This document shows positions 11,496-29,493 of a DNA stretch of 64,000 nucleotides, one piece after another. The stretch is from an uncultured Gammaproteobacteria bacterium. GTDB taxonomy: Bacteria; Patescibacteriota; Microgenomatia; Levybacterales; UBA12049. The stretch is from the NCBI GenBank assembly GCA_964525395.1, contig CAZGGU010000002.1, positions 30,263 to 94,262 on the forward strand, in the 5' to 3' direction. The notes under the pieces are model-generated. The model had not been told where the DNA came from. It worked only from the letters and a program-made list of their open reading frames with translations, and searched no databases. The number at the start of each line of letters is the position of its first letter. Position 1 is the first letter of the stretch. A program made the translations under genes and the position numbers.

Positions 11496-12614
11496 ATGTT
11501 TGAAATCACAATTCTCTCTGATAAGTTAAAGTCTGGATTGTCATTTGCTAACCATGCAATTTCTTCTAGATCTCAATTGCCAATTCTCTTGAATTTTCTC
11601 TTACAAACTAAAGACGGAAAACTGGAGATCCATGCAACAGACTTGGAAATAGGAATTATTTATAAGACTCCTGTAAAAATTGATGGAGAAGGGGGAGTAA
11701 CGGTTTCAGCTAAAACATTTCTCGATCTAGTATCTAGCGTAAACAAAGACAAGATATCTCTTAAGAAAGATGTAGATACGCTTTTCTTAACAGCAGAGAA
11801 ATTGAAAACTTCATTTCCAACCATCTCCGCTGCTGATTTCCCCAAACTATATTCTGAGCTAGGTGAAAAAAGAGCAGAGTTTGATAAAGATGCGCTCGAG
11901 AAAGAGTTGTCTAAGATCGTGTTTGCTGCTGCTATGGACGCAGCAAGACCAGAGCTATTAGGAGTTCTTATTAAACAGGAAAAGGGGAGTAAGGGTTTGA
12001 CTTTGGTAGCTACCGATGGATTTAGATTATCACTTAAAAAAGGTTTTGGTGGTGGATCAGTGGCTAGCGAGGAAGCCAGCTTCCTAATACCCGCAAGAGT
12101 TATCAAGGAAGCACTCAGTCTTAAGGATGATAAGCAAAAAATTGAAATTTACACCCCAGAATCTAGTAACCAAGTTATTTTTGATACACCCGAAGCTACA
12201 ATTGTTGGACGCCTGATTGAGGGGACATACCCTAATTACGAGAATATCATCCCTGAAGATTTTGCCACCAAAGTCGAATTTGATCGCGAAGAAGTTTTAA
12301 ACGCAGTAAGGCAATGTTCAATCTTTGCTCGTGAAGCTGCCAATATTATAAAAATGTCCATAATGAGCGATAAGGTCGTTTTTAGTGCATCGGCTTCAGC
12401 GGTTGGGGATAATGAAGTAGAGGTGGAGGCTAAAGTAGATGGGGAAGAAAATCAAATAGCTTTTAATTCTAAGTACCTTATCGATTTTTTAAATAGCATC
12501 ACTGATGAGAGAATTATTTTTCAAATGAATGGACCATTAACCTCTGGCGTATTTAAAATAGTGGGGGATGAATCGTTTTTGCATCTAATAATGCCTATTC
12601 AGATAAAAGATTAA
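11496..12614 (+). CDS. dnaN: DNA polymerase III beta sliding clamp
   Basis: 372 aa, three-domain length; N-terminus MFEITILSDKLKSGLSFANHAISSRSQLPILLNF typical of DnaN; follows dnaA. Confidence 0.9.
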   Translation: MFEITILSDKLKSGLSFANHAISSRSQLPILLNFLLQTKDGKLEIHATDLEIGIIYKTPVKIDGEGGVTVSAKTFLDLVSSVNKDKISLKKDVDTLFLTAEKLKTSFPTISAADFPKLYSELGEKRAEFDKDALEKELSKIVFAAAMDAARPELLGVLIKQEKGSKGLTLVATDGFRLSLKKGFGGGSVASEEASFLIPARVIKEALSLKDDKQKIEIYTPESSNQVIFDTPEATIVGRLIEGTYPNYENIIPEDFATKVEFDREEVLNAVRQCSIFAREAANIIKMSIMSDKVVFSASASAVGDNEVEVEAKVDGEENQIAFNSKYLIDFLNSITDERIIFQMNGPLTSGVFKIVGDESFLHLIMPIQIKD

Positions 12615-13237
12615 TTTGCTTCAGCCGAAGGAGTAGTCGAGAGATTTAGCTCTGGTGCAATATTAACCATAAAACTCTGTTGATTTTGAGGAGCGAAATA
12701 TAATATTTCTCCGACATCTTTTCCATCACTTTTTATACCGACACCTTTAGTTAAGAAAATATCCCAAGGATAACCGTCGTTTAATTCAAATAGAGTCATG
12801 TTCGGTTTTCCATATTCTGACTTGAACTCAGAAACTGTCTTTCTATAATTCCCATAAACATTTTCAGTTGAATAAACAACTAGATTGTTTTTAACAAGAA
12901 TTACATTCTGGTGGGATTCAACTGGTGTTTTATAAAACAGGTAGGTTTTATCTGTAGTTCTTTTTATTTCATTTGCTTTGCCATTTATTTTTTGCGCCTC
13001 AGCAAAATTAGTTTTACCTGGGGTTATTTTATTAATTTGTGAGTATTCTGTTTCAAGCGCCTCTGTAGTAGAAGAATTTAGAGCTGGGGAAGGGGAGGGT
13101 GAATTATTCCCTCCTGGAACAAATGAAGTGCCGCTGACGATTGAAATTACCAATAGAATAAAGGCAATAATTGAGAATATGCCAATTAAAAACATTGTAA
13201 TTATTATTTTTTTGTCTGGTAAATCAAATCCATCCAT
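12611..13237 (-). CDS. membrane-anchored extracytoplasmic protein, last gene of T4SS-like operon
   Basis: N-terminal TM IITMFLIGIFSIIAFILLVISIV followed by SPSPSP linker; stop codon overlaps dnaN stop (convergent, 4 nt). Confidence 0.4.
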   Translation of the reverse strand: MDGFDLPDKKIIITMFLIGIFSIIAFILLVISIVSGTSFVPGGNNSPSPSPALNSSTTEALETEYSQINKITPGKTNFAEAQKINGKANEIKRTTDKTYLFYKTPVESHQNVILVKNNLVVYSTENVYGNYRKTVSEFKSEYGKPNMTLFELNDGYPWDIFLTKGVGIKSDGKDVGEILYFAPQNQQSFMVNIAPELNLSTTPSAEAN

Positions 13238-13953
13238 TATTTAAAAGAATATCCTCCAAATATATTATTTTTCACCCAATTTTCTCCGATAGGGCAGCTT
13301 CTGCTCCCCTGAGAAACAATTTGATCTGCCATAAATTCAGCCATACTCTCATTTGAGCCGCTTATATTTCTACCCAAGCTTCTTGCATAGGATGTGTCAT
13401 ATGTGTAGAAAAAATAAGGCGGAAACAATCCAGAAGCAAAAGTGTAGCAGTTTTTGTCCTTGTTGTATGCTTGAGATTCAAATTGTTGAAAAAGCCTCAT
13501 GTGGCCATTTCTAATAATGTGACCAGATTCATGAACTAGTCTTGCTTTTCTCTCGCTATTGCTTGCACAGCTTAAGCTATAACTTCTCAATGTTAGCGTA
13601 CTTGTTCCATCACCGTTGGATTGAACAGTTGCGGGGCATCCTCCTTCGCCAGTTGATATAAATTCAAGTCTGGTTGGGCCTGAACTCCTCAATAATTGTT
13701 TATATTTGGGAGCAGCTGATGCTTCAAGATATATTTTATAGACATCCTGAAGATATGCTTTAGGAGGATTCCCTTGTACTATTATGTTGAAGTCATCTCT
13801 TAAGCATTTAGCGGGATTGTCTAAGCAGGCTTGTGTGGGTTTTACTCCACTTCCAACAATAAGCCTTAAGACTGACTGATCAGCTGCGCGAGCGCTTGAA
13901 GAACTTATCAATAAAAGAAAAATTGGTAAGAAAATTATTAAGATTTTTTTCAT
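13237..13953 (-). CDS. secreted Cys-rich protein with zinc-metallopeptidase-like HExxH...H motif
   Basis: Signal peptide MKKILIIFLPIFLLLISSSSARA; LVHESGHIIRNGH motif; 4-nt overlaps with both flanking genes. Confidence 0.4.
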   Translation of the reverse strand: MKKILIIFLPIFLLLISSSSARAADQSVLRLIVGSGVKPTQACLDNPAKCLRDDFNIIVQGNPPKAYLQDVYKIYLEASAAPKYKQLLRSSGPTRLEFISTGEGGCPATVQSNGDGTSTLTLRSYSLSCASNSERKARLVHESGHIIRNGHMRLFQQFESQAYNKDKNCYTFASGLFPPYFFYTYDTSYARSLGRNISGSNESMAEFMADQIVSQGSRSCPIGENWVKNNIFGGYSFK

Positions 13954-15950
13954 GATTTACCCTCCTGTGCAGTACAAGCGCTACAAGATCCACTCGGAGA
14001 TCTTACTTCACCTCGTCTTATTATATCCTTGCATGCGCTAGTATTTTTAAATTTATCATAGTAACAAAGACATCTGGCGGTTCCCCAATAGCTAAAGTTT
14101 TTTCCATCCCTGGCCAAGGAGTTGTTATATGACACAGCGTTTTCTACCTGTTTTTGCCAAGTCACGTCTCCGCGGTCATCAGCCTGAGTCCAAATCTTGA
14201 ATGGGTTAGGGAAGCTTCTTCTCATCTGGAACTTTCCCCATGATCCCCCCGCGCCGTTTCGCCCATAACCGTTTGGCGTATTGGTCTCACATTTGGCAAT
14301 CGATTTCCACATGTTTTGATTAGCCACGTTTGCCTCTGTTTGCTCAATTACTCTGTTTAATTTAGCTTCTGAATATGTGCATAACGGATCACCGAAATTG
14401 GTTGCAGAGGACTGGGGAAAATCTTTTTTAAGAGTAGTCATAATTTCCCGATATTTACCGTTGCAGGTGTTATTGCTTGGCCTAGCTGTAGCGCCTTCAA
14501 ACAGTCCGCCATTTTCTCCGGAGGTGCCTCCATCATTGGTAAGTGTCACGCCACTCATGGTCAGAATCATGCTCGTGGCGCCTGTATCAGTTTGCAGGGT
14601 CCCGCTAACTGTAAATTCATAGTGTCTTTTGGTTCCACCTGTGTTTGGCAGGCTCCACTGATAGATAAAATAGGTAGTATCTACGGGAACGCTAATTATT
14701 TTAGGTTTAGGATTGTCTGGTGTTTCAATGTTTGCGAAAAATCTATTACTGATTTGAACATTGGCCTTTAAGTTGCTTGGGTTAGTATCGAGCTTAGCGG
14801 TGTCAACATCGATGATTACTTTTACTGAAACCTTATCGCCTTTACTTCCTGCTGGGCAGTTTACTCTGCAGCCATCTGCTGTAGCAAGATAAGCCTCGCC
14901 CCCCACAAAAGTGACAGAGGTGGGTTTTTCCTGTGGACCCGGTGGCGGCTGTGTGACTTGATCAGGGTTATTGCCACAATAGTTTGCTCCGAAAAAGTCT
15001 CCAATCGGATTATTCACTACGCTACAGCCCAGTATTAGTATAATTATTACTAGTAGAAAAATTGCAAATATTACTCCCACCACAGGTCCCCATATCTCGA
15101 TTGTGGAAAGTAGTGTTCTGGCTACTGCTTTTTTGCCTTGAGACTTCAAAGTCTTTCCTAAAGCTTTTTTGGTTATTCTACCCCTTTTTCTCAGAGCTCT
15201 TCCGGCCGGCCTTGCTTTTGATGGAGCAGTGGACACTTGAGGTGTTGATTGCGGTTCTGGGAGCGGTTCTGGTATGGGTTCAGACCTTCCCCAGTCATCG
15301 AAATTGCTTGGGATGATTTCGGGATCAGGATAGTAGCCAATTTCAGATATAGACGGGGTGGTAGCGCTTGGGGTGGTGGTTGCGTTTTGTTTGGTAGCTT
15401 CTTGCGCACTGTTTTCTTGCTGAGGATTCAAGGAGACTGAAGGAACGCTTGATTCAATTTCGCCCCATTCAGATTTAAGTTGAGCTAAATCCTGCGGAGT
15501 AGTTTCAGAAATTTTTTCCCCAGCTTTTTGCATTTGGTCAAAGCGCGTCTTGGGTTGGGTGGGAGCATTTTCGATCGAAGTATTATTTGGTTTATCTTTT
15601 TTCTCTTCTGCTTCTGGTTTTTTAGGCTCAGGTTTTGGCTTTGGGGCAAAAGGCGCGTCCCATCCCGAAAGCGCATTGCTAAATACATTTCCCCCTGGAG
15701 TTTCTTTAGGCATTTCCTTAATCTCAGGTTTTTCTGGTTCAGGGGCTTGAATTCTTGATGCTAGCCAATCTTGTCGGGCAAGAAGTGTGCCCGGAATGTC
15801 TCTTATTCCTTTAGAGCGTAAAACTGCCTCAAGGTCTACCTGGGAACCACTCAGTGCAATTTCTTTTTCTTGCGGGGTAAGTAGGCTATAAACAAGCTCA
15901 AAACGCCTAGAGTTTCTTAGTCTTTTCTCAGCTGTAGGATCGTTTGCCAT
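13950..15950 (-). CDS. bitopic membrane protein with C-terminal Rpf/transglycosylase-like (lysozyme-like) domain; candidate T4SS cell-wall hydrolase (VirB1/PrgK/TcpG analog)
   Basis: Central TM VVGVIFAIFLLVIIILILG; Pro/Lys-rich linker; C-terminal KCETNTPNGYGRNGAGGSWGKFQM...W...SYWGTARCL resembles Rpf transglycosylase-like domain (CESGGNW..NGYYGGLQF...W...C). Confidence 0.5.
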   Translation of the reverse strand: MANDPTAEKRLRNSRRFELVYSLLTPQEKEIALSGSQVDLEAVLRSKGIRDIPGTLLARQDWLASRIQAPEPEKPEIKEMPKETPGGNVFSNALSGWDAPFAPKPKPEPKKPEAEEKKDKPNNTSIENAPTQPKTRFDQMQKAGEKISETTPQDLAQLKSEWGEIESSVPSVSLNPQQENSAQEATKQNATTTPSATTPSISEIGYYPDPEIIPSNFDDWGRSEPIPEPLPEPQSTPQVSTAPSKARPAGRALRKRGRITKKALGKTLKSQGKKAVARTLLSTIEIWGPVVGVIFAIFLLVIIILILGCSVVNNPIGDFFGANYCGNNPDQVTQPPPGPQEKPTSVTFVGGEAYLATADGCRVNCPAGSKGDKVSVKVIIDVDTAKLDTNPSNLKANVQISNRFFANIETPDNPKPKIISVPVDTTYFIYQWSLPNTGGTKRHYEFTVSGTLQTDTGATSMILTMSGVTLTNDGGTSGENGGLFEGATARPSNNTCNGKYREIMTTLKKDFPQSSATNFGDPLCTYSEAKLNRVIEQTEANVANQNMWKSIAKCETNTPNGYGRNGAGGSWGKFQMRRSFPNPFKIWTQADDRGDVTWQKQVENAVSYNNSLARDGKNFSYWGTARCLCYYDKFKNTSACKDIIRRGEVRSPSGSCSACTAQEGKS

Positions 15951-15953
15951 ATG

Positions 15954-17987
15954 TTAGAAAGTTTTAGTTGCATCATTAATGTTTTGACTAGGTAGAGGTG
16001 ATTCTGGCGCTGATTGAAAGCCAAAATCAACCGGAGCTGATGGTTGATGGGATGCAGGCGGAATGGGTGCAGGTTGGGTTGGGCTTGCAGCCTCAATATT
16101 CAGATTAGGGTTGGTTGTTATTTCTACTTTTTCTTCTTGGGGATGAGATTCGATGGCTGAGCCAAATTGTGATTCCAGTGTATTGTCAGGGCGCTGCTCT
16201 TGTTCTTTAAGTGCTTTTAGTTTGAGAACTTCTTCGGGATTGGAAGTAATAAGTTCATGTTCAAATGGCGCAGCCAAAACCTTCATGGCCACATGACTTT
16301 GGCCAGCGAAGAATAATCCTTCACCGATGTTGGCAGAGAGCAAGAGTTGTTTTTCTTGTTCGGAAAGATAGAAAATATTTGATACCAAATCAATCTGCGT
16401 TGGGCTTTGTTTCAGCAGCATTTGAATAGATGAGTTTGAAAGTACAGCCTTGCCGTAATCATTGGACAAAAAGTCCTGAACATCCTGTGTTGCAGTAGTT
16501 AGAGCAAGGTAATATTTACGAGCTCGCTTAGCAATTCCGTGTACAAAAGAAGCTGAATCTTGATACTTCATTAAATACCATGCCTCATCTAAGACTAGTA
16601 GGCGTTTTTTAAGATCTTTTCTTACCTTGGTCCAAATAAAATCAAGAATGATATGCATTGCCACAGGACGTAGTTGATCTTCAAGTCCTTGCGTTGAGAA
16701 AATAGTCAAAGGATTTTTAATATCAAAGTTAGACTGCTGATTAAATATTCCAGCCATGCTGCCTTTAATAAATTTCTCAAGCCTGAGAGCCAAGTCTCTA
16801 GCAATAGGATCTTCTGTGCCAAGCAAGACCTTGTATAAATCTTCCATAAGGGGTGGTTCTTTAGTTTGCGTTGAAGGATCAGGGGTAATTCCTTTTTGAC
16901 GATAGGTTTCCACTAGCGCGCGGTCAAGAATGGCGTCATGTTGTGCGTCAATGTCTCCCAAAACAATCCTGAGTAGGGCGTGCAGAGACAGGATTTTTAG
17001 TCCTAGTTCGTTTTCCCCCTCTTCGTATCTTCCTGAAAGATCAAAAGGATTAATCTTAATAGGTGAGGCTGGGGTAAACTCTACATATTCTCCTCCCATA
17101 GCTCGCGTAAGCTCTCCATACTCGCCTTCAGGGTCAATAACGATAACCTCTGTACCAAACATAAACTGCCTCATGATTTCTAGCTTGATCAAATAAGATT
17201 TTCCAGATCCTGACTTTCCGAATACTACCTCATTGCCGTTCTCAAGAGAATATCGATCAAAGACTATTAATGAGCCATTGAGTTGATTAATGCCATACAT
17301 GACGCCCTTATCTTGAGTAAGTGTGGCTGATGTGAAGGGAAAGGTGGATGCAAGACTGGTAGTGTCCATATTGCGCGTGAGAAGAAGCTCATCTCGCGCT
17401 AAAGGCACAGTGGATTTAAATCCCTCCTCCATCTGTAATGTTGAAGGTTTAGCGGTCAAGAGAATTGAAGCAAGAAGGGTCTTGAGTCTTTTTCCTGCTT
17501 CTTTTAGTTCTTCTAAATCATCAGCAACGAGTGTTACATAGAGGCTAAATTGGAAAAATCTCTCAATACCTTTGGCAAGCTCCTCTTGAACGGCAAGCGC
17601 ATCTTCGAGAGAGGCTTGAACTGTGGGATCCAAAACTTTTCCATCTTCTTCTTGCTTGGAAAGCGTAGCTTCCATTTCAGCGATTTTTCTTCTTAAGTCT
17701 CCCAAAATATCTCCAGATGACTGAGGATAGCAAAACATGGAGATGTTTAGTGATTGATCAAAATCAATTAAAGGCTCTAGCCAATTCGGCGAAACGTATC
17801 TTGGATATCCAACCACGAAAAATGTTTTAAAATATTTTTCTCCGACGCGAATGTGTCCGAAATCGACCTCTACGGATGGGGGAGCGATAATGTCAGTCAC
17901 ACTGTTCATTCCACGCTCGAAATGCTCAAGTGGTTTATTCGTTTTGGTTGGCATTGGAACAACAGGAGCTTTTTTTCGTCCAAACAT
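15954..17987 (-). CDS. virB4: type IV secretion ATPase VirB4/TrbE/PrgJ family (main body)
   Basis: Walker A FGKSGSGKSYLIK, Walker B LLVLDEAWYL, conserved VirB4 N-domain segment HIRVGEKYFKTFFVVGYPRYVSPNWLEPL. Confidence 0.8.
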   Translation of the reverse strand: MFGRKKAPVVPMPTKTNKPLEHFERGMNSVTDIIAPPSVEVDFGHIRVGEKYFKTFFVVGYPRYVSPNWLEPLIDFDQSLNISMFCYPQSSGDILGDLRRKIAEMEATLSKQEEDGKVLDPTVQASLEDALAVQEELAKGIERFFQFSLYVTLVADDLEELKEAGKRLKTLLASILLTAKPSTLQMEEGFKSTVPLARDELLLTRNMDTTSLASTFPFTSATLTQDKGVMYGINQLNGSLIVFDRYSLENGNEVVFGKSGSGKSYLIKLEIMRQFMFGTEVIVIDPEGEYGELTRAMGGEYVEFTPASPIKINPFDLSGRYEEGENELGLKILSLHALLRIVLGDIDAQHDAILDRALVETYRQKGITPDPSTQTKEPPLMEDLYKVLLGTEDPIARDLALRLEKFIKGSMAGIFNQQSNFDIKNPLTIFSTQGLEDQLRPVAMHIILDFIWTKVRKDLKKRLLVLDEAWYLMKYQDSASFVHGIAKRARKYYLALTTATQDVQDFLSNDYGKAVLSNSSIQMLLKQSPTQIDLVSNIFYLSEQEKQLLLSANIGEGLFFAGQSHVAMKVLAAPFEHELITSNPEEVLKLKALKEQEQRPDNTLESQFGSAIESHPQEEKVEITTNPNLNIEAASPTQPAPIPPASHQPSAPVDFGFQSAPESPLPSQNINDATKTF

Positions 17988-18649
17988 TATTTATTTCCTC
18001 CCTTCACAGTTTTTGCTGATACGTATGGATTATGAATTCCGTCGGTAAGGTTAGAGCGTCCAGCTTCTTCATTGAACGATTCATAGTAAAGCTCAATTAG
18101 CTCCTCTTTCTCTAGAACTTTTGACTTAAGGCCAACGCGCTGAAGTTCTTGCATAAGAGAACGTGCTTTTGAGACAAGCATAGGCTTGGCTTCTTTAGCA
18201 AAATCTTCTTTATTTCTAATATTGGTCACTGCTCCTGCGCCCTTTTCCAGAAAAGAATAGGTAAAAACAAGATAAAATTTCTTATCAAGGACTGTTTCTT
18301 TTTGGATAAGGTTGGCTACAAAATCCTTATAGAGAAGGATGTGTTTGGAAAGTAGGGGATTGTTCGTTTTCTTTGACTCTGCGTCTAGAAGATGAACGTA
18401 GGAGCTAATATCAAGCTTTCTGGAAACAATCAGAATCTGAATTGGGTAAGAAAGTGAATTTAGGAAAGAAGCATACGAGAGAATTTTAACTTGCTGCTCC
18501 TCAGGCGACTGCAAAGCGAAGTTGGTAGCGGTAATTTCTAGAACCATGCATGCCTGATTGCCGGGTAAAACCACTACGCTCTCGAATATGTCCTGAATTT
18601 CAATAAAGCGTTGAGTGGTTGTATTTATTTTTTGGGCAGATTTGCTCAT
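17987..18649 (-). CDS. separately encoded VirB4 N-terminal segment (split virB4), translationally coupled
   Basis: VVVLPGNQACMVLEITATNFALQSPEEQQVKILSYASFLNSL matches the first conserved block of the CagE/TrbE/VirB4 N-domain; stop overlaps next start as TAATG at 17985-17989. Confidence 0.5.
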   Translation of the reverse strand: MSKSAQKINTTTQRFIEIQDIFESVVVLPGNQACMVLEITATNFALQSPEEQQVKILSYASFLNSLSYPIQILIVSRKLDISSYVHLLDAESKKTNNPLLSKHILLYKDFVANLIQKETVLDKKFYLVFTYSFLEKGAGAVTNIRNKEDFAKEAKPMLVSKARSLMQELQRVGLKSKVLEKEELIELYYESFNEEAGRSNLTDGIHNPYVSAKTVKGGNK

Positions 18650-19885
18650 TTAGTTAAAAAGCTCCCTCCTAAGCTCTTCCCTTTTATCCACCGAAGTTAC
18701 TTCAATTGGCATAATTGGATGACCGGTTGCTTCGATTTGAACAATGTCGAATTTATTTTCTTCTTTAGGGTCTTCAAAGCTCAGGAAATATTTGCCATTT
18801 GAAACAGAGGTGGCTGAAGCAAATTGACCAAGGCCATTGGTTTTAAATGCTCTGACAGGATTATCTTCTTCGTCTTTTACTTCAACTAATACGTTCTGAA
18901 GTGGATTTCCTCTCGGGTCTTTTACAATTCCAGTGATAAGATTGGGCGCTTCAGGCATGCTAAGAACTCCTGCAGCCTTGGTTTGATTTGGCGCCACTTG
19001 CTTTACTCTTGGTTCCTGAGTTGCTTGAGGTGCTGGAGGGTTGGGCTGGCTCGTTGGCTGAGCAGGAATCACTGGAGGAGTTGAATGATCCTCAAGCTTA
19101 GAGTTGATCTTAAGAACCTCTCGCTCTAGTTCTTCTTTTTGACGAGTTGCTTCAGCAAGCATTTTTTCTAACTCTGCGATTTTTTGATCAGCAGCATCTT
19201 GATTTACGGCTGGAGCGGTTTGCTCAAGTGTTTTGCTTGCCTCAATTTGTTTTTCAAGAATCGCAGTTTCTGCATCTATTTTTTTCTCTGCAGCTTCCAC
19301 TTTTGCCTTTTGCTCTTGGTCTAGTTGATCTTGTTGAGCTTTTTCTTGAGCGGCTCTAGCAAGCTCGTCTGCGCTTGGTTGATTAGGAGTAGGAGCTACT
19401 TGTGCTGGCGCTGGGACTGGAGCTTGAATTGGTTGGATTTGTTGAACAGGTTGAGCTGAGATTTGATTTAATTCAATAGTTTGCATAACGGGAATATTTG
19501 GTGCTTGAACTGGCACGTGTGGCGCAGGCAAGGGGATGACTTGGGGTATCTGCTTCTCGGAAACTGTTTGCTTCTGGGTTTTAGTGATATCTCCACCATC
19601 TTTTCCATAAATATATTTCGTGGGGGAAAGCATGGCTCTGAAAAGATTGATAAACATAGTGTCCATTGGGCGTCCGTCCACGGGAACGAAGGTAAAGATT
19701 ATTCCTATAGTTACAATCACAATTGAGATTGGCCAAGAAATGATGTGAGGAATTGGCAACAGGAAAGAGATAAACCAGCCAATCAAAACGACAACTGCCA
19801 AATACACAAACTGCCTAACGGTCATAGAACCGATAAGCTTAAATTGAAAGCCTGTAATGTCTTGGGGAATTGGGTGATTCTCCAT
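18650..19885 (-). CDS. PrgI/VirB3-like two-TM protein fused to long Pro/Gln-rich coiled-coil and C-terminal globular domain
   Basis: N-term IPQDITGFQFKLIGSMTVRQFVYLAVVVLIGWFISFLL followed by second TM matches PrgI-family topology/motif (P.D...K....T.RQ); central coiled-coil EQKAKVEAAEKKIDAETAILEKQIE. Confidence 0.45.
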   Translation of the reverse strand: MENHPIPQDITGFQFKLIGSMTVRQFVYLAVVVLIGWFISFLLPIPHIISWPISIVIVTIGIIFTFVPVDGRPMDTMFINLFRAMLSPTKYIYGKDGGDITKTQKQTVSEKQIPQVIPLPAPHVPVQAPNIPVMQTIELNQISAQPVQQIQPIQAPVPAPAQVAPTPNQPSADELARAAQEKAQQDQLDQEQKAKVEAAEKKIDAETAILEKQIEASKTLEQTAPAVNQDAADQKIAELEKMLAEATRQKEELEREVLKINSKLEDHSTPPVIPAQPTSQPNPPAPQATQEPRVKQVAPNQTKAAGVLSMPEAPNLITGIVKDPRGNPLQNVLVEVKDEEDNPVRAFKTNGLGQFASATSVSNGKYFLSFEDPKEENKFDIVQIEATGHPIMPIEVTSVDKREELRRELFN

Positions 19886-20013
19886 CTATTCTCTTTCCCT
19901 GCCTAATATTAACAATAGAATAATATGTGAAAAATCCCATTTCAAGGCTATCGAAATAGATCAGGTTTAGAAGAAATTGGCCTTAAATGTGAAAAGCCAT
20001 TTCTGACTAGAAG

Positions 20014-20388: not shown

Positions 20389-20431
20389 AAATTTAGCGTA
20401 ACAAAGAGGGGATTAAATCTCAAGCGGAAGT

Positions 20432-20851
20432 TTAACTGTTGGTGTAATTGGTAAGTGTGGGAAGAGTTAAATTGGTTAAGTTAATTCCGAAAAAGCCAAG
20501 TAAAATGTTCAAGATAAAGAATGACAAGAACATGATTGCGAGACCGATAAGAGCTGCTACAATCATTTGTCTTGATGCATCAACCTTCTTGGAGTCTCCG
20601 CCTGACATTATCCACTGAATTCCTCCAAAAATAAGGAAGCCGAGAGCAATAATTACGCCGATTACGAAAACTACTTGGATAAGGGTAGCCACTATTCCGC
20701 TGAAATCAGAGAGAGTTAATTTACAAAGTCCGCCAAATCCTCCACCAGGGCATACGCTAATTTTTTGTTGAGCATGTGCTTGAGGAGCGAGTGTTAAGAA
20801 TGGTACCGCTGAAAGTGAAATGGCAGTTATCTTTTTCATGTATATAAACAT
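20432..20851 (-). CDS. VirB2/TrbC-like pilin paralog 2 (with cleavable signal peptide)
   Basis: Signal peptide ...LTLAPQAHAQQ; FLIFGGIQWIMSGGDSKKVDASRQMIVAALIGLAIMFLSFFILN. Confidence 0.55.
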   Translation of the reverse strand: MFIYMKKITAISLSAVPFLTLAPQAHAQQKISVCPGGGFGGLCKLTLSDFSGIVATLIQVVFVIGVIIALGFLIFGGIQWIMSGGDSKKVDASRQMIVAALIGLAIMFLSFFILNILLGFFGINLTNLTLPTLTNYTNS

Positions 20852-20887
20852 CGTAGAAATATTTTAAATTCTTGTCAAGGGGTCAAT

Positions 20888-21223
20888 TTATGTGAGCTTT
20901 AAAAGATTGAGTCCGAAGAATCTGCCGACTACATTAATTATGAAAAATGCTAAGAAGGTGATGATAAGGCCAATCGCTGCGAAAGTAATTTTCTTTCTGG
21001 CCCCATCTACAGCTTTCGCATCTCCACCTGATGAAATCCACTGAATCCCGCCCCACATGATGAAAAATAAGGCTGCTAAGACTGCAGCAATAAACATGTA
21101 TGTAATTCCCAAGCGAATTACACCTTGAAGAGTGGGGAGACCAGACTCAGGCATGCCACCAATGGGTTTTAAATCAATTTGTTTGCCGTCACTGGGAACT
21201 TTAAGTGCTATTTCTCTAATCAT
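20888..21223 (-). CDS. VirB2/TrbC-like pilin paralog 1
   Basis: FFIMWGGIQWISSGGDAKAVDGARKKITFAAIGLIITFLAFFIIN; two TM hairpin. Confidence 0.55.
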   Translation of the reverse strand: MIREIALKVPSDGKQIDLKPIGGMPESGLPTLQGVIRLGITYMFIAAVLAALFFIMWGGIQWISSGGDAKAVDGARKKITFAAIGLIITFLAFFIINVVGRFFGLNLLKLT

Positions 21224-21225
21224 AT

Positions 21226-22470
21226 TTAACTAAATCCTGGAAGACCAAGGATATCAACTGTAATTAATCTAAGAATTGAGAGAGAAAAGATGATGAGTAA
21301 AAGTCCTGCAACGGCTGCTATTATGGCTTCTCTTGCTTCTGCTATTTTTTTAGGGTCCCCCTGTGAGGTCATTAGTTTAAATCCATTAGCGATAAAAAGA
21401 ATAATAAGAATTCCACCGGAAAGACTGAGGACGAGAATCAGCACGCTTCTAGCAAAGCCTTCAGGATTAATCCCAATCTTACCTATAGCTGTGTTGCAGG
21501 AGTTTGGAATTGCTTCGCCGGATTTAGGCTGACAGGGATTAGAAACTTTATTGCCCGGGTAGTCATAGCAGCCCAACTTTCCATCTGTGCCTGTGGTGCA
21601 GTATTTGCCACCGCATTCGGAATCATTATTGCAGCCTGAATGACCACCGTTTTGATCCACCGTGAAAGAGTCTGAGCAGTTTGTGTTATATTTGCCATCG
21701 ATCTGGACTTTATATGAGTTTTCTCCTATTAAATCATTTCCTACCGATACTCCCGCCGCTGCCTCGAGTTCACTTCTAGTTGGTGTAAATCTTTTTATCT
21801 CTGATCCATTTTCAGTTCCATTTATTTGAATAATTCTGACAAGCATTTTATCTTCAGGTTTTTCTGTAAACTCCTTTTTAAATGCAGCTTTTATTTTAAC
21901 TTCAGTTCCAGGCTTAAAATCAGTGTTTAGATATGTAATCGTGCAAAACTTATTGTCAACGCTAGTTTTTTGAATTTCCAAAGAGGCGCTTCCTAGGCTG
22001 CAGAGTAGAAAATCTCTGTTTTGACCCTGCTCTCCTTGGTGTCCGGTGGTTCTTAAATTGAATTCATATTTGCCAGGGTTGAAATCTGATGCATGATCCC
22101 CCTTTGTGTTTCCATTTCGATCAAATGGGGTATTAACAGTTGCGAGAGTATCTTCTTCGAATCGTTCCAGCGTCACTTTCGCAGGTACATTTGATTTATA
22201 AAATAAATCTCCAGTATCTTCTCCAATCGTACGAATGTCTCCTCCTTGTGGATTTATTGTCATTTCAATATTTGACGTAAGTGGAATTTGTTGACCCTTT
22301 ATTTTTAAGGTGATGCTATTTATTATATGGTCATCATCTCCTGCAGACTGTTTTTCTGAAATCTTCTGGATAGAACATTCACTTTTAGAATTTTGAGCAT
22401 AAGTAGGCTGAGTGTAAGTTGAAACAATCAGTATTAAAAAGAGTAGGACAGCAAAGATAATTCTTTTCAC
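21226..22470 (-). CDS. secreted Cys-rich extracellular domain fused to C-terminal pilin-like module (candidate minor pilin/tip adhesin)
   Basis: Signal peptide MKRIIFAVLLFLILIVSTYTQPTYA; Cys-rich GCNNDSECGGKYCTTGTDGKLGCYDYPGNKVSNPCQPK; C-terminal ILFIANGFKLMTSQGDPKKIAEAREAIIAAVAGLLLIIF shares the pilin paralog motif. Confidence 0.5.
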   Translation of the reverse strand: MKRIIFAVLLFLILIVSTYTQPTYAQNSKSECSIQKISEKQSAGDDDHIINSITLKIKGQQIPLTSNIEMTINPQGGDIRTIGEDTGDLFYKSNVPAKVTLERFEEDTLATVNTPFDRNGNTKGDHASDFNPGKYEFNLRTTGHQGEQGQNRDFLLCSLGSASLEIQKTSVDNKFCTITYLNTDFKPGTEVKIKAAFKKEFTEKPEDKMLVRIIQINGTENGSEIKRFTPTRSELEAAAGVSVGNDLIGENSYKVQIDGKYNTNCSDSFTVDQNGGHSGCNNDSECGGKYCTTGTDGKLGCYDYPGNKVSNPCQPKSGEAIPNSCNTAIGKIGINPEGFARSVLILVLSLSGGILIILFIANGFKLMTSQGDPKKIAEAREAIIAAVAGLLLIIFSLSILRLITVDILGLPGFS

Positions 22471-22506
22471 AATTTTATCGTAGAAGAAAATGAGATTTTT
22501 GGCAAG

Positions 22507-23814
22507 TTAAGGTGTGAATTTAAAGCCGCGTCCTTTTACAGTTTGCAGATGAAGCGGTGAATTAGGGTTTTCTTCAATTTTTTTCCTAACCCTAAAAATA
22601 AGTTGATCAAGCGCTTGCTCTGAGACCCCAACTGTAGTGCCTAAATCTCCCCAAACTGCAGAGATGATTTCCTCTCTTTCGATTATCTTGTCAGGATTCA
22701 TTAGCAGATAAGCAAGAAGCTTAAATTCAGCAGATGTTAAAGATTCTGAAATAATAATTTTTCCTTTTTTAATTTCTTTAGACTCTTTATTAAAACTAAT
22801 CTTTTGAGTATCTGTCTCATTTTGTTTTTTTGCATAAGACATGAGTAGCGGAAGAGCAAATTTATTATCCCTAACTAATCCTACTGCCACGAGATGTGAA
22901 GAATCGTGAGCTTTGTTTTCCTCGATGAGGTTTTGCTCAAATGGAGTAAAATATTTCCAAATTTCTTCCAAAACTGCCTTGATTCTGCTGTTTGAAAATA
23001 AAGATTTTTCTAAATTTTCTTGTTCACCGTTTTCTAGACAAGCCTCAGCTGCTACTCTGGTTAGTTTTCCTACGCCTCCAGTTAAATTCGTGACTGTCTC
23101 GAGTGTTTGCTCTGAAAGTTTTTTATTCGCTTGTTTTTGAATATAATTTAACCTGAAATCTAAAACTGCCTTATTCATCAGCGGCAAATATACTATATTT
23201 CCTACTACGAATTCGTAATAATCAGCAATTAAATCATTTTCTACTATTTCTTCGAGTGGGCGAGAGAGAGGAAAGATAGCAGAGAAGCGATATTTAGCTC
23301 TGTCTCTAAGAACCCTAAGATTGCTAAAAAATTGTGGCGTAAGCATTGGGAGATATTCCTCAAAGCGATCGAAGAGAAAAACAACTGTATATTCTTTTTC
23401 AAGTGACAGATAATCAATAGATTTTCGCAGTCCTTGAAACAGAACTAGTTCATCGTTGGTTTTGAGGCTTTGTTCGAAAAGTCCACGAATATATTTAGAT
23501 TCTTCTTCCAGATGGCGTTCTTCAAAAGAATCAAGTAGCTCAAGAAACATATACTTGGTAGCCTCAGTTAATGGTCGTTTTTTAATTTCAGAGAAATTCA
23601 TCATGACGAAGTGAAACCATTTTTCGTTTTCCTTGAGGTGAAGAGTTCTGGCTTCGCGATTGTAGGAAAGAAGTCCCATGATGTTGGATCTTCCTACGCC
23701 TGGAAGAGAAACGATTTGCGCAGAATTTCCAGATTTTATATATGAGAGGACTTTATCAATTTCATCAAACCATGAATCTGGGGGATATAGAGATTCGAAA
23801 TGTTTAGGATCCAT
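22507..23814 (-). CDS. transcriptional regulator: N-terminal P-loop/STAND-like NTPase domain + C-terminal OmpR/PhoB-type winged-helix DNA-binding domain
   Basis: C-term LTSAEFKLLAYLLMNPDKIIEREEIISAVWGDLGTTVGVSEQALDQLIFRVRKKIEENPNSPLHLQTVKGRGFKF = trans_reg_C wHTH; N-term SLPGVGRSNIMG (degenerate Walker A) and VVFLFDRFEE (Walker B-like). Confidence 0.55.
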   Translation of the reverse strand: MDPKHFESLYPPDSWFDEIDKVLSYIKSGNSAQIVSLPGVGRSNIMGLLSYNREARTLHLKENEKWFHFVMMNFSEIKKRPLTEATKYMFLELLDSFEERHLEEESKYIRGLFEQSLKTNDELVLFQGLRKSIDYLSLEKEYTVVFLFDRFEEYLPMLTPQFFSNLRVLRDRAKYRFSAIFPLSRPLEEIVENDLIADYYEFVVGNIVYLPLMNKAVLDFRLNYIQKQANKKLSEQTLETVTNLTGGVGKLTRVAAEACLENGEQENLEKSLFSNSRIKAVLEEIWKYFTPFEQNLIEENKAHDSSHLVAVGLVRDNKFALPLLMSYAKKQNETDTQKISFNKESKEIKKGKIIISESLTSAEFKLLAYLLMNPDKIIEREEIISAVWGDLGTTVGVSEQALDQLIFRVRKKIEENPNSPLHLQTVKGRGFKFTP

Positions 23815-23914: not shown

Positions 23915-26900
23915 ATGGAAAGAGAAGCTTTCACGCCAGAAGAATTGACAGGACAAGGCCAAAACGCCTATTCTAGAAGTATGCCAGAAACACCTGATAA
24001 TCCTATTAAAGGTCCTGAACAAATACCGCCTCAAAGAGTAAAAAGACCACATTCAGAAGTTAACCCATCGTCAATTGAAGAAAGAATTCAGCAAATGGCG
24101 GAGGAATATCGAGGAAAAGGAATTCCTGTAGATTTTGGCACTCTCCAAGCTTTTAGAGCTCTTGCAGAAAGAGGAATTATGCCAATGGGTGGAGGCGCAG
24201 ACGATCCCGATGGGGGACCTGCGGGGGGAAGAAGACGAAGAAGAGCGGGAGCAGATGGAGTGCCGCCAATTCCACTAGATGAACAAATTAATGCATTTGC
24301 AGAAGCGAATGGGCTTAGTCCTGAAACCGACCGTGCTTATATTCTTAACGCGTTGGACCGTCAAAGAGCAGATGATGAGAGAAGAGCTGCTAGAGCTCAA
24401 GGGGCAGAGGGGTGGAGAACTATGTATCTTAAGGATCAGGACATGGAAATTTTGAACAGAAATCCCATGGAGTGGATCGAGGAAAAGTTTAATGAAATAA
24501 ATGCTCTTGCTAAGAAAGGAGCAGAACTTGATTCTCCTGCGCTTCAGCGTATTCAAACACTTTTCGGAGAAGCGCATGAGTACGTAGCTAATTTTAAGAA
24601 AAATGATCCTGAGCTAGTTCAGCAATTTACTGATGTATTTTTAGGAAGACTTAACTTAATGTTTATGGCTTCCACTATTGAGCTACGAGATTTAGAGTCT
24701 GCAGGGAAAATGGCAAGAAGAACAAAAGCTTCTACTCTATTTAGTGCGATGGAATATGAAGATGGAAAAGTAGGAATGCTCTATAACAGAATGCAAACTA
24801 TGTATGAAGATTACAGATTGGCTATCGGAGGAGTAGATAGAAAAATATTACCCGAGTTTGAATCTCGATTCCAGCAATTTATTATAGACGGAGAAATGAA
24901 GATGGCGAAGAGAGGGGTAGGTGAATATGCGGCCAAATATGCAGAAATAACGGCTATTGTTAATGGGCAAGGATTGTCAGAAAGACAAAGAGTAATACTT
25001 GGGAAGATGGGAATAAATCCCGATGATCCTATTCAGGCTACCCCAGAAAAGCTAGAAGAAGCAAGACAAGCTGAGATAAATGACAGAATTGAGCTAGATA
25101 TTAGAAGAGCAATGGGACCTGCTTGGGATATTTTCCGTATAACCCAGCGTCATGCGGTTATTAATGCTAGAGCGCATAAAACAAATTCTAGAGATGTTAA
25201 GAAATTGGCTGGAGGTTGGAAGGAGTTTTTAGGTCAGAATGGTGCTGCTTTTGCTTCATTTAACGCGGAAAATATGCTCTGGGAGGAATATGGCCTCTAT
25301 ACTGGTCATGATTGGGCTTTTGTAAGAGAAATTAAGCGTGATCTGGCAACTTCAGAGATAGCAGATAGGCTCAAAAATATTAAGAAAAAAAGAGCTAAAT
25401 TAAATGCTGGTGAAGATCCAGATAAAGATGATCATCATGTAAGCGATGAGGATGAAGGAGAAGAGGATCATCATGTTCTTCATGATGAACATCCAGAAAC
25501 ACCTGAACAAAGAAATGTTAGATTTGCGGAAATACGTAGACAGCTTCAAATTGAAGAGAATATTTTACGCAACATGACACAAGCAGATGTGGATGAGTTT
25601 GGAAAGACGCTCTTTAGAGATATGTATGCAGCTGCTGATTTTTACTCCTCTGGGTGGAGAATGAACGGTATCTTAGATCAGCTTGACAAGTATGGAAATT
25701 ATTTAAATTCTCAGGATGGGGTGGATCCACATCATCCAGTATTTGATTCCAAAAATTTCGGAATGTTTGTTCGATTAAGGGCAGATGCAGGTGGTAGAAG
25801 AGATACCTGGGAAAGAATTGCCACATTTCGACAGGAGGAAATATTAAGGCTTTACAGAGATAAAATTCTGACAGAGCCTAGCCCACAGTACGATAGCCAT
25901 GGTCATAAAATTAAGGCAAAAAAGCCAGCGCCAGATTATATGAAGCCGTCGCTTGATTTATTCTTCGGTAAGCTTAGAGAAATGGGAATAACTACTGACG
26001 ATTTACCTGCAGAATTAAAAGATGCTCAAACAACTGAATACGATGTATTTAAATTAAGGTATGGAGCAGCGATTCAAACTATTCGCCAGCAGGAGATGGA
26101 GGCTAGGGGAAATGGAGTACCGCGTCAAATAGACTTTTCTGCAATTGAGGTAGGATCAGATGACTATGTAAGATTTAAAGAAATAATTGATAATTCAGTG
26201 GGAAAGGAAGGAGCAATTGATGATGTCATAAGAGTTTACAAGGAAATGAATAGATTCATTGGACGTAGGGATGCTATTGGTTTTGAACCCAAGGTGATTG
26301 ATAGGCTTATTTATGATCCCAAGTTTGCGGATATTTACACGAGAGTGATAACAGCAGATGATATCCTTTCAACAAAGATTGAAGGACCCTCATCGCCTAT
26401 AACTTCTCTTACTCAAAGTGTTTCCGTAGATCAGGCAACTGACGCACTTGTTAGAAATTTTAATGATTTAGGCCATGCGGGAAATGCAATGGGTGGACTT
26501 TTGACGTTCGTTAAAGAAGAGCACGAAGAACCTAGATTAAAGGCAGCGCTTGAATTCGCTGAAGAAGCAAGCATGTATGGAGGGCAGGATGCTAGAGCTA
26601 AGAATGTAAGATTTACTTTTGGAACTTATCTTAATCTAGCGAAGAAAGATTGGCTTTGGGACACAATGGATTTTGAGTCAGGGCCTGCAAGAAAAGCGAT
26701 TTCAAATGCACAGAAAATATATGGGCCACAGTTGAAGGCTAAATCAAGAGCAGAATTAAGACATGAATTAGATGAAATTAGATATAAGCTCGAGGGCGCC
26801 TTTGGAGGACACCTCGGTGATAAATATTATAGAGAGCTTGAGCATATGCTTGAGGTAACTAGTGGAGATTCTAATAAGATGAGATTTATGTCATTCATGA

Positions 26901-27028
26901 TTGTTTTAATTGCAGCAGCTCTTGTAACACCAGTTGGAGTTTCTAAAGATAGCTTTAATGATGTTGGAGGACTTCTCGCAGGTGGTGGGGGCGGCGGCGG
27001 TGGTGGTGGGGGCGGAGGCCATCATTAA
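23915..27028 (+). CDS. 1037-aa hydrophilic, charged/coiled-coil protein, tail-anchored (single C-terminal TM) with C-terminal poly-Gly-HH tail; unknown function
   Basis: No signal peptide; only hydrophobic segment FMSFMIVLIAAALVTPVGV near C-terminus followed by GGGGGGGGGGGGGHH; locally GC-rich 5' region encoding GGGADDPDGGPAGGRRRRRAGADG. Confidence 0.5.
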   Translation: MEREAFTPEELTGQGQNAYSRSMPETPDNPIKGPEQIPPQRVKRPHSEVNPSSIEERIQQMAEEYRGKGIPVDFGTLQAFRALAERGIMPMGGGADDPDGGPAGGRRRRRAGADGVPPIPLDEQINAFAEANGLSPETDRAYILNALDRQRADDERRAARAQGAEGWRTMYLKDQDMEILNRNPMEWIEEKFNEINALAKKGAELDSPALQRIQTLFGEAHEYVANFKKNDPELVQQFTDVFLGRLNLMFMASTIELRDLESAGKMARRTKASTLFSAMEYEDGKVGMLYNRMQTMYEDYRLAIGGVDRKILPEFESRFQQFIIDGEMKMAKRGVGEYAAKYAEITAIVNGQGLSERQRVILGKMGINPDDPIQATPEKLEEARQAEINDRIELDIRRAMGPAWDIFRITQRHAVINARAHKTNSRDVKKLAGGWKEFLGQNGAAFASFNAENMLWEEYGLYTGHDWAFVREIKRDLATSEIADRLKNIKKKRAKLNAGEDPDKDDHHVSDEDEGEEDHHVLHDEHPETPEQRNVRFAEIRRQLQIEENILRNMTQADVDEFGKTLFRDMYAAADFYSSGWRMNGILDQLDKYGNYLNSQDGVDPHHPVFDSKNFGMFVRLRADAGGRRDTWERIATFRQEEILRLYRDKILTEPSPQYDSHGHKIKAKKPAPDYMKPSLDLFFGKLREMGITTDDLPAELKDAQTTEYDVFKLRYGAAIQTIRQQEMEARGNGVPRQIDFSAIEVGSDDYVRFKEIIDNSVGKEGAIDDVIRVYKEMNRFIGRRDAIGFEPKVIDRLIYDPKFADIYTRVITADDILSTKIEGPSSPITSLTQSVSVDQATDALVRNFNDLGHAGNAMGGLLTFVKEEHEEPRLKAALEFAEEASMYGGQDARAKNVRFTFGTYLNLAKKDWLWDTMDFESGPARKAISNAQKIYGPQLKAKSRAELRHELDEIRYKLEGAFGGHLGDKYYRELEHMLEVTSGDSNKMRFMSFMIVLIAAALVTPVGVSKDSFNDVGGLLAGGGGGGGGGGGGGHH

Positions 27029-27053
27029 TTGACATAGGTATTAAACTTTAATC

Positions 27054-28625
27054 TTAATGGCCACTACCGTACGGTTTCGTAAATCCTGAATATATCATTG
27101 CCTTCGCAAGAATATTAGTTCCTTTTCCACCTCCATGTTGAGCATGTACGTTCCTTGCCCATGTGTCAGCTGCAGTCTTTGGAATTCCTAAGTATTTTCC
27201 GCCAACTCCGAGTGGTCCCATAATATTTCCAAAATTAACACCTGGAGCTTTGAACGCATCTTTAGTGGTGGTTAAGACATTTGGTAGCATTAAAATAAAT
27301 CCAAGACCAACTATTGCCCCGATTGCTTCGGTATTCGTTCCGCCAACCAGTGGGGGAACGAATCTCGTTACAGAGTCGCCATTAAAGGATTCAATGAAGT
27401 AGGAGGCAAGTAGGAAAAAAGCTACAGCTACTGGATAAACGGCTAAATTGGCTAAAAGATCTTTAATCCATACTCCTATCCCAGCTTTGGAGCCTGGCAT
27501 AACTCCAGCGATAATCCAAAATGGAGCAAAAATAATATCAAGAATTAAGTTTACATAGGCAACAACGAGTACGACCCAAACCCTAAATAAACAGACAACT
27601 ACCGCAATGGCAATAATTAAAAATGCTAGGATGTTTACAATCACACCAACTACGCCACCAATTATATTTCCCACAATATCTCCATTGCCGAAGTTAGAAG
27701 ATGGACCAGTAAAGACTGATTTGATAACTTCAGCAAAAGCAGATGATACTTGTCCTGCGATTCCCAGTATTCCGCCATTTTCACTAAAAGCGGCATTAGC
27801 TGCATTAAAAGGATTAGAGGCTCCCACGACTGCATTAGCAGCTTCAGGAGACACTACAGTTGAGGTAGCGCTTTGGATGACAAAAGCAAAAAGGTAGGTA
27901 GCTACGAACATGATATCAATGAGTAATCCGGCGATTGCAAATGAGAAGGTAACTGCAATTATTCCCATAATTATTTTGGGTAATTGATTTTGAATGGTCA
28001 TCACGTCATGTGCGTCAATATGGACCCTAAGCATTATTCCAAGACCGACAACGACGAAGGCGAGAATTAGAATTAAGTAGACAATATTTCTCATAGCCAC
28101 CCACAGTGGAAGAACGGGCTGGAGGCCGCAAAAGCCAACTCCTCTAGAAAGATTTTTACATGGATCAGTATTTTCTTGAGCATAAACTTTATCTCCTACG
28201 CCGAAATTACCTTTAAGATATGCAGTATATTGAGTAAAAGAGGCGGGCGGGGTAAAAGTCATATCAATTGCCTTTCCCATAACGGCGATTAAACCTCCCC
28301 CATTTTCTACATAACCGATTTTACCTGTTTCTGGATTTACACCTAGACACTGTGTGCCTGGTCTGGTTGGGTCCACTCCTGTGAGTTGGCAAGCCATAGC
28401 CGACATGGTTTCGATAAGTAGTATCTGAACTCCATTATGCATGTTCATTTCTACATTCGCTTCAGCATCTAAATTTTCTGTTTGTATATCAGCTTGAGGA
28501 GTAGTGGCCTCAATTTCATCAAGTGTTCCTGGAGTTTGCGCATAGGTTTTATGTGAAATTCCAGCGAAAAGAGCGAGGAATAAAAAGAAAGCAAGAAAAA
28601 ATAATTTCTGGGCAGAAATTCTCAT
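27054..28625 (-). CDS. VirB6/TrbL-like polytopic membrane protein
   Basis: Signal peptide then large periplasmic-type domain, then >=7 hydrophobic helices and Gly-rich C-tail; architecture of VirB6/TrbL/PrgH family; adjacent to T4SS genes. Confidence 0.5.
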   Translation of the reverse strand: MRISAQKLFFLAFFLFLALFAGISHKTYAQTPGTLDEIEATTPQADIQTENLDAEANVEMNMHNGVQILLIETMSAMACQLTGVDPTRPGTQCLGVNPETGKIGYVENGGGLIAVMGKAIDMTFTPPASFTQYTAYLKGNFGVGDKVYAQENTDPCKNLSRGVGFCGLQPVLPLWVAMRNIVYLILILAFVVVGLGIMLRVHIDAHDVMTIQNQLPKIIMGIIAVTFSFAIAGLLIDIMFVATYLFAFVIQSATSTVVSPEAANAVVGASNPFNAANAAFSENGGILGIAGQVSSAFAEVIKSVFTGPSSNFGNGDIVGNIIGGVVGVIVNILAFLIIAIAVVVCLFRVWVVLVVAYVNLILDIIFAPFWIIAGVMPGSKAGIGVWIKDLLANLAVYPVAVAFFLLASYFIESFNGDSVTRFVPPLVGGTNTEAIGAIVGLGFILMLPNVLTTTKDAFKAPGVNFGNIMGPLGVGGKYLGIPKTAADTWARNVHAQHGGGKGTNILAKAMIYSGFTKPYGSGH

Positions 28626-28781: not shown

Positions 28782-28815
28782 CATATAGCGAGATGAGAAG
28801 TTTATGGTGAGCTTG

Positions 28816-29476: not shown

Positions 29477-29493
29477 TCAAGTTATATATTTTG

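Follow-up and report, generated by a model that had tools for sequence, protein, structure and literature searches.

A Gram-positive-type type IV secretion locus beside the putative replication origin of Candidatus Levybacteria (Microgenomatia)

Gene content of the locus

The locus described here lies at 12.6-28.6 kb of a 64,000-nucleotide (nt) stretch, referred to below as the window, of the chromosome of Candidatus Levybacteria (Microgenomatia; Patescibacteria or Candidate Phyla Radiation, CPR). It carries the genes of a type IV secretion system (T4SS) next to dnaN, dnaA and the putative origin. An earlier sequence-only reading had described a minimal Gram-positive-type T4SS module at the origin. 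The open reading frames (ORFs) that it listed were confirmed at their coordinates (Table 1), and the module proved to be of an MPF-FATA-like monoderm type. Profile hidden Markov model searches supported the earlier labels for VirB4, PrgI, the pilins and the regulator. Comparisons were made with 80 related loci, one genome per GTDB species, with VirB4 identities of 60-88%. Where names are informative, nearly all relatives belong to Candidatus Levybacteria/Levyibacteriota; Gottesmanbacteria and other Microgenomates appear at the far end. Many other records bear uninformative or evidently wrong names ('uncultured Gammaproteobacteria'). By title or by rnpA-dnaA-dnaN-T4SS synteny, the 80 loci come from Levybacteria or other Patescibacteria metagenome-assembled genomes.

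Table 1. Features of the T4SS locus and of other parts of the window (aa, amino acids; TM, transmembrane; T4CP, type IV coupling protein; numbers after domain names are E-values)
Feature	Coordinates	Strand	Properties and matches
Putative oriC	9936-11424		Cluster of DnaA-box-like sites around dnaA
dnaA	9997-11349	+	Bac_DnaA 1.8e-62, Bac_DnaA_C, DnaA_N
dnaN	11496-12614	+	Three DNA_pol3_beta domains
208-aa protein	12611-13237	-	N-terminal membrane anchor (hydrophobic segment, residues 8-43), ~140-aa extracytoplasmic domain
HExxH protein, 238 aa, putative gluzincin-type metallopeptidase	13237-13953	-	Secreted; N-terminal hydrophobic signal-like segment
Bitopic lysozyme-like hydrolase, 666 aa	13950-15950	-	Low-complexity cytoplasmic N-part; TM helix 279-320
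VirB4 ATPase, 677 aa	15954-17987	-	Without the first ~180 residues of canonical VirB4
TrsD-like detached VirB4 N-piece, 220 aa	17987-18649	-	conju_CD1110 positions 1-182 (9e-5)
PrgI/VirB3-like membrane protein	18650-19885	-	Pro/Gln-rich linker, C-terminal CarboxypepD_reg-like beta-sandwich
Spacer between pilin array and prgI, 128 nt	19886-20013	-	Hairpin+T site 19999-19978; -35/-10-like site 19945-19917
Pilin, 124 aa	20014-20388	-	PF18895 T4SS_pilin, 29.6 bits, 7e-7
Pilin, 139 aa	20432-20851	-	PF18895, 22.5 bits, 1.3e-4
Pilin, 111 aa	20888-21223	-	PF18895, 26.1 bits, 9e-6
Pilin fusion	21226-22470	-	PF18895, 34.0 bits, 3.1e-8, aa 339-402
One-component regulator	22507-23814	-	Trans_reg_C 1.4e-18; OmpR/PhoB winged helix, aa ~330-435
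Giant ORF, 1037 aa, all-alpha	23915-27028	+	No signal peptide; C-terminal TM helix 989-1012; poly-Gly-HH tail
VirB6-like polytopic membrane protein, 523 aa	27054-28625	-	At least 5 TM segments
comF-type gene	35437-36135	+	Double zinc ribbon DZR_2 1.7e-8, Pribosyltran 1.3e-5
VirD4-like T4CP	57212-59569	+	TrwB_AAD_bind 1.8e-9, T4SS-DNA_transf, TraG-D_C

The clearest result concerns the split of VirB4 proposed earlier: the protein is divided cleanly into a TrsD-like N-terminal piece and a separate ATPase. The ATPase reaches 388 bits against the NCBIfam model conju_CD1110 (cut-off 325) over positions 179-734 of 752, and together with the 220-aa protein it tiles that profile (1-182 and 179-734). 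With the mycoplasma profile VirB4_plasma the 220-aa protein aligns to positions 97-279 and the 677-aa protein to 285-893 (2.6e-9). The ATPase also matches the Pfam families P-loop_TraG (1.7e-28), AAA_10 and DUF87, and the N-piece matches TrsD (NF041427, 1e-3). The two genes overlap by ATGA, and a TrsD-like gene was found in 77 of the 80 related loci.

The VirB3-like assignment of the next gene was confirmed by PrgI (PF12666; 3.5e-11, 43.9 bits against a cut-off of 27); the protein has two N-terminal TM helices and a CarboxypepD_reg match (6.4e-7). The predicted pilin fusion and three small pilins all returned T4SS_pilin matches, and every pilin domain has two hydrophobic helices. Pairwise identity is 38-48% among the small pilins and 25-48% across all four pilin domains. 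The fusion consists of a signal peptide, an N-terminal extracellular domain of ~310 aa and the C-terminal VirB2-like pilin domain, and matches NCBIfam Mbov_0395, a pilin-like conjugal transfer protein of a mycoplasma integrative conjugative element (ICE), at 3.8e-7.

The 523-aa protein beyond the giant ORF, which had been called VirB6-like, is probably VirB6, judging from its orthologues and its predicted fold. Two of 40 orthologues match Pfam TrbL/VirB6 (best 1.9e-7). Its AlphaFold (AF2) model has a predicted local distance difference test (pLDDT) score of 71, and the top eight PDB matches found with Foldseek are all TrwI/VirB6 of R388 (8rtd, 8rt9, 7o3v; E 6e-3 to 0.1). It differs from R388 TrwI in its low identity (15-20%), low TM-scores, about twofold length and an extra N-terminal extracytoplasmic region. 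PDB sequence searches with this protein or the hydrolase singly gave nothing useful.

Three genes lie between virB4 and dnaN. The extracellular part of the 666-aa protein ends in a lysozyme-like peptidoglycan hydrolase domain of ~180 aa (aa ~476-660). A profile of this domain built from 24 syntenic relatives matches the C-type lysozyme 6t5s (E 2.7e-5) with the catalytic Glu aligned. Weak SLT matches were obtained for 7 of the 24 relatives and an Rpf-like Transglycosylas match for one (E 0.0045); the window protein alone has no Pfam match, including the Rpf model Transglycosylas (PF06737). By these profile matches the protein is a VirB1 analogue with a lysozyme-like cell-wall hydrolase domain and no Rpf in the strict sense; the earlier label "Rpf-like hydrolase" holds for the lysozyme-like superfamily and not for the Rpf family.

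The secreted HExxH protein noted earlier was recovered with its motif invariant in the family: H141, E142, H145, E202 and E206 are the same in eight relatives, a gluzincin-like signature. Outside the family it matches only the VgrG2b metallopeptidase effector domain, and that weakly (E 0.014). In two related loci (L009 12498-14459 and L002 5837-7762) the HExxH protein is much longer: its N-terminal extension is Cys-rich, and its C-terminal domain contains a 'GCVPTATAMIL' motif. This motif may resemble that of C39-like cysteine peptidases.

The last gene of the row encodes, as predicted, a membrane protein. The 208-aa product has no Pfam or PDB match, and a weak BamE-like signal was obtained in three of nine relatives. 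It was tried as the missing VirB8, and no supporting evidence was found. Searched by tblastn, 27 of the 80 related loci yielded the lysozyme-like gene, 7 the HExxH gene and 8 the 208-aa gene. The stretch from virB4 to dnaN is the variable part of the locus, and the 208-aa gene is a variable accessory.

At the other end, the regulator that had been placed at the head of the row carries a winged helix, to which its PDB matches are confined (aa 330-435). The N-terminal 330 aa have no receiver-domain match, and by that test the protein is not an OmpR-family two-component response regulator. This part is P-loop-NTPase-like, with a degenerate Walker A motif ('PGVGRS'; conserved form 'PGxGRS') and a Walker-B-like 'FLFDRFE'. 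The motifs are conserved across 33 relatives, with the Walker A lysine replaced. This suggests a one-component regulator that senses nucleotides or is a degenerate STAND-like protein. The gene was found in 36 of the 80 loci, on either strand.

The giant ORF separates the regulator from virB6. Searches of Pfam, NCBIfam and PDB gave no match for it, even with a 37-member profile, and an AlphaFold model from a three-sequence alignment is unusable (pLDDT 46). Relatives of this protein and of the hydrolase C-part were drawn from syntenic loci or a full HMMER scan. That scan, of 1.84 billion proteins, gave 88 representatives of the giant-ORF family; a word-indexed search of 5.8 billion proteins gave only two relatives of the giant ORF and two of the hydrolase C-part, because both diverge quickly. 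In 20 of 20 related loci examined, an ORF of 884-1326 aa lies antisense between regulator and virB6, matching the window in position and orientation; minus-strand ORFs of this size were seen in the virB6/regulator interval of L007, L011, L017, L018, L034 and others. The context is also the same in two metagenomic contigs (L081 10001-13024; L082 1127-4333). The syntenic sequences form at least three clusters without pairwise similarity, joined only by profiles. Such a fixed position together with extreme divergence would be expected of a factor in host interaction or of a scaffold that evolves fast.

Position at the origin and transcription units

The cumulative GC-skew has its minimum at ~10-12 kb. 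Nine of the 35 DnaA-box-like sites in the window (TTATCCACA, one mismatch allowed) fall within the cluster around dnaA, as do both perfect matches (10000 and 11416). The origin was therefore placed in this region. Being minus-strand genes to the right of the skew minimum, the T4SS genes are transcribed towards the origin; the entire set from 12611 to 23814 is head-on to replication. The gene row ends convergent on dnaN with overlapping stop codons, as had been noted: the dnaN stop TAA (12612-12614) and the stop of the 208-aa gene (12611-12613) share the palindrome TTAA at 12611-12614.

The common gene order in the relatives is regulator, pilins, prgI, trsD, virB4, variable region, dnaN (convergent), dnaA, rnpA and yidC. 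dnaN could be tested in the 48 loci whose sequence extends 9 kb or more past virB4 on its downstream side, and a convergent dnaN was present in all 48, at a distance of 149-6132 nt (median 4 kb). Adjacency to the origin is therefore the rule for the lineage and not an oddity of one genome. The sequence-only reading had regarded a placement beside oriC-dnaA-dnaN as unusual; the synteny comparison that it suggested shows the module kept next to dnaN in every testable related species, and passages of a 2025 survey already report this placement (PMC12102498).

Eleven ORFs, and not ten as counted before, run along the minus strand from 23814 to 12611. The junctions, from the dnaN end upward, measure -1, -4, +3, -1, 0, +128, +43, +36, +2 and +36 nt. 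Overlaps of 1-4 nt or gaps below 45 nt, which had been given for the whole row, were found at all other junctions and not at the 128-nt spacer between the pilin genes and prgI; close packing thus describes ten of the eleven genes. Tight coupling is confined to the block prgI-trsD-virB4-hydrolase-HExxH-membrane protein (0, -1, +3, -4 and -1 nt). This spacing makes co-transcription and translational coupling very likely for the six-gene block that starts with prgI and ends with the 208-aa gene.

A TTGaca-N17/18-TAC(G/A)(A/C)T element stands in each short spacer before the regulator, the pilin fusion, and the 139-aa and 124-aa pilin genes, and promoter-like sites sit in the 36-43 nt spacers. In the relatives, 98 of 191 pilin genes have the pattern TTGNNN-N16-18-TANNNT no more than 60 nt upstream, compared with 4% of random background windows. 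Totals of promoter-like and terminator-like sites in the window are not above those in shuffled sequence; the sites carry weight only because they stand in the spacers and recur in relatives. The spacer between pilins and prgI in relatives has a median of ~150 nt, is mostly above 100 nt and reaches several kb. Relative to virB4, the regulator keeps the same strand in 18 of 35 relatives and is inverted in the other 17.

The description of the row as one coupled operon lacks support, because the pilin genes have promoter-like sites of their own and half of the relatives carry the regulator in the opposite orientation; the 128-nt gap also counters it. Judged from these sites and spacings, transcription is probably modular, with the regulator, the singly promoted pilin genes and the block from prgI to the membrane protein as separate units. 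An apparent direct repeat in the 128-nt spacer (GAAATGG..TTTTCACAT) was discarded, as it shows no enrichment in the window. In a close relative (L081, 4824-5201), a gene of the 23S_rRNA_IVP family (four-helix bundle) is inserted between the pilin array and prgI, which marks this spacer as an insertion-tolerant boundary.

Relation to known systems and proposed function

The headline, a relaxase-less Gram-positive-type T4SS beside the origin, is already published, and the window contributes a further member. Passages of Wang 2023 (PMC10633639) describe, by transposon sequencing, a Gram-positive-like T4SS with a pilin array (SEML1_0006-0019) that is essential for epibiotic growth of Southlakia epibionticum; this system was reported without a recognisable coupling protein or relaxase, and protein export or another role was suggested. 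The survey of 3,035 Patescibacteria genomes by Quiñonero-Coronel 2025 (Microb Genom, PMC12102498), in the passages used here, describes a monophyletic VirB4 clade nested in MPF-FATA, with TrsD beside VirB4, PrgI/VirB3 and VirB6, rare relaxases and distant T4CPs. The same passages give VirB2-like arrays of 2-11 genes, abundant in Microgenomatia, and a location near dnaA, dnaN, rnpA and rpmH, for which a gene-dosage effect was proposed. For Microgenomatia they report scarce VirB6 and most VirB3 homologues not associated with virB4.

The Levybacteria locus resembles these systems, so far as those passages describe them, in its MPF-FATA-type VirB4 with adjacent TrsD, PrgI/VirB3, probable VirB6 and PF18895 pilin array, in the peptidase and lysozyme genes downstream of virB4, in the lack of a relaxase with a distant T4CP, and in its chromosomal position near dnaA, dnaN, rnpA and rpmH. 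An array of divergent VirB2-like pilins, one of the marks of Patescibacteria T4SSs, is present. Unlike the Microgenomatia pattern of the survey passages, prgI abuts trsD and a VirB6-like gene stands at a conserved position. The locus further differs from the published systems, as there described, in the P-loop-like/winged helix-turn-helix regulator and the hyper-divergent giant tail-anchored protein.

With conjugative MPF-FATA systems (CTn2 CD1110, pGO1 Trs, pCF10 Prg and the mycoplasma ICE with Mbov_0395/0397) it shares a VirB4 above the CD1110 cut-off, TrsD-like and PrgI-like proteins, a membrane-anchored cell-wall hydrolase and an Mbov_0395-type pilin-like domain. It differs from them in having no relaxase found, no adjacent T4CP, no recognisable VirB8-like protein and no PrgB-type adhesin, and in being fixed in the chromosome, with a VirB2-like pilin array, and not on a mobile element. 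A relaxase with an adjacent coupling protein on a mobile element, the mark of conjugative MPF-FATA systems, was not found within the window. The earlier statement that the window has no relaxase stands among the ORFs scanned with Pfam. The VirD4-like protein and the comF-type gene lie where they had been placed (57.2 and 35.4 kb), the former 33 kb from the T4SS locus.

The locus is almost certainly a member of the Patescibacteria T4SS group. As a whole it is best explained, with high probability, as the phylum's own MPF-FATA-derived T4SS, fixed beside dnaN/dnaA, non-conjugative and directed at a host. The finding of no relaxase and the distance of the T4CP make the system probably non-conjugative. 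On balance, we favour an apparatus powered by VirB4 and channelled by VirB6 that uses dedicated hydrolases to breach the cell's own wall and assembles a VirB2-like pilus or conduit through which it interacts with a host. In such an apparatus VirB4 with its detached TrsD-like N-piece, anchored by PrgI/VirB3, would drive a membrane channel formed by VirB6. Local opening of the cell wall would fall to the membrane-anchored lysozyme-like hydrolase, perhaps aided by the HExxH peptidase, and the machine would polymerise the VirB2-like pilins of the diversified four-gene array into a pilus or conduit touching a host bacterium. No conjugation would take place; protein export to the host cell, or exchange of material with it, would be most likely. 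This role is the one proposed, in passages of the two sources, for the essential homologous locus of the saccharibacterium S. epibionticum (PMC10633639, PMC12857230), and a FEMS review of 2025 (PMC12857230) speculates there that the T4SS forms a pilus conduit for host exchange.

Several points weigh against this interpretation. The analysis shows the gene identities, the split of VirB4, the synteny and the absence of relaxase matches, whereas the assembly, pilus, substrate and transcription units are inferred, and any host of Levybacteria is putative. The search that gave no relaxase covered Pfam matches of ORFs 120 aa or longer in the 64-kb window, and neither the whole genome nor MOB-specific profiles, and the VirD4-like T4CP in the window could still couple DNA or protein substrates. 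A VirB8-like component was not found. The evidence for VirB6 is marginal alone (Foldseek E 6e-3, TM-scores 0.37-0.44, no Pfam match of the window protein itself), and two of the four pilin domains are above the PF18895 cut-off of 26.6 bits and two just below it.

The sequence-only reading had pointed to a non-conjugative use such as DNA uptake or cell-cell contact. Of these, non-conjugative use is probable and contact with a host is favoured. A competence-type T4SS for DNA uptake, like Helicobacter ComB or archaeal Ced and working with comF and other competence genes, is improbable. A comF-type gene does share the window, passages of the survey report co-localisation of T4SS loci with comF, recG and radA in the class ABY1 (PMC12102498), and VirB4 has weak matches to CedB (E 1.7e-11) and CedD. 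These matches, however, reach 43.5 bits against a cut-off of 700 (CedB) and 25.7 against 600 (CedD), compared with the 388 bits to the conjugative CD1110, and comF is 11.6 kb from the nearest gene of the locus (virB6, 28625) and 17.5 kb from virB4 (17987), with housekeeping and tRNA genes between. Competence of S. epibionticum needs type IV pili and ComEC, according to passages of the FEMS review (PMC12857230); deletion of comEC abolishes transformation and leaves viability unaffected, whereas the T4SS is essential, so that the essential role of the T4SS is not DNA uptake.

Still less probable is a decaying or cryptic integrative conjugative element by dnaN, that is, the remnant of a recent horizontal transfer and not a lineage-specific organelle. 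The T4SS components do derive from conjugation machinery, a tRNA-Ser with an exact 17-nt repeat of its own 3' end lies just beyond virB6, and a tyrosine recombinase and the T4CP are found elsewhere in the window. The identical order and position in all 48 testable species-level relatives nevertheless indicate vertical inheritance; all core genes are intact and tightly coupled, the GC content of the locus is no different from that of its flanks, the scanned ORFs gave no relaxase and the tRNA repeat encloses just 42 nt.

The position itself might have been selected for replication-associated gene dosage and hence high expression, the hypothesis put forward in the 2025 survey passages. Adjacency is conserved across the lineage and, according to those passages, in several classes of Patescibacteria (PMC12102498). 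As the whole explanation of the origin position we regard gene dosage as doubtful, because of the head-on orientation and the likely slow growth. Head-on genes are an unusual arrangement for high expression and fit poorly with the published notion, and dosage needs overlapping rounds of replication, which we infer are not to be expected in slow-growing CPR bacteria. The conservation is accounted for just as well by frozen ancestral synteny, which is at least as plausible.

Within the preferred reading of a host-directed T4SS, the giant protein may tentatively be regarded as a lineage-specific CPR component, either a rapidly diversifying substrate, effector or host-specificity factor or a cytoplasmic docking scaffold that replaces the missing adjacent coupling protein; the regulator and the pilin promoters might then switch or tune the pilin variants to suit the host. 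The giant tail-anchored family and the P-loop-like/winged helix-turn-helix regulator inside a T4SS locus are possibly new. No mention of either was found in passages or a term search of Quiñonero-Coronel 2025 (PMC12102498), no discussion of such a regulator or of per-pilin promoters in the available passages of Patescibacteria T4SS papers, and no paper joining 'Levybacteria' with 'type IV secretion' in a literature search. Both proteins are reasonable candidates in the search for a substrate or a control element. Few machines have been shown to be essential to the epibiotic way of life of Patescibacteria, and the T4SS is one of them. The window adds a clean Levybacteria example in which the dnaN-side position is universal in the lineage, VirB6 is probably present though highly diverged, and the locus appears to be modular.

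Other features of the window

Directly beyond the virB6 start lies tRNA-Ser(tga) (28695-28782). The exact 17-nt direct repeat of its 3' end is at 28825-28841, 42 nt downstream, where none is expected by chance, and may be an att-site scar of an excised or decayed integrative element. In all, four tRNA-Ser (tga, cga, gga, gct) and one tRNA-Arg are encoded within 3.9 kb (28695-32533), with small ORFs between them. The stretches 43381-48410 and 40392-42029 hold genes for two large class A penicillin-binding proteins (transglycosylase + transpeptidase) in tandem and, nearby, for a SpoIID-domain protein, which makes this region rich in cell-wall genes for a reduced genome.

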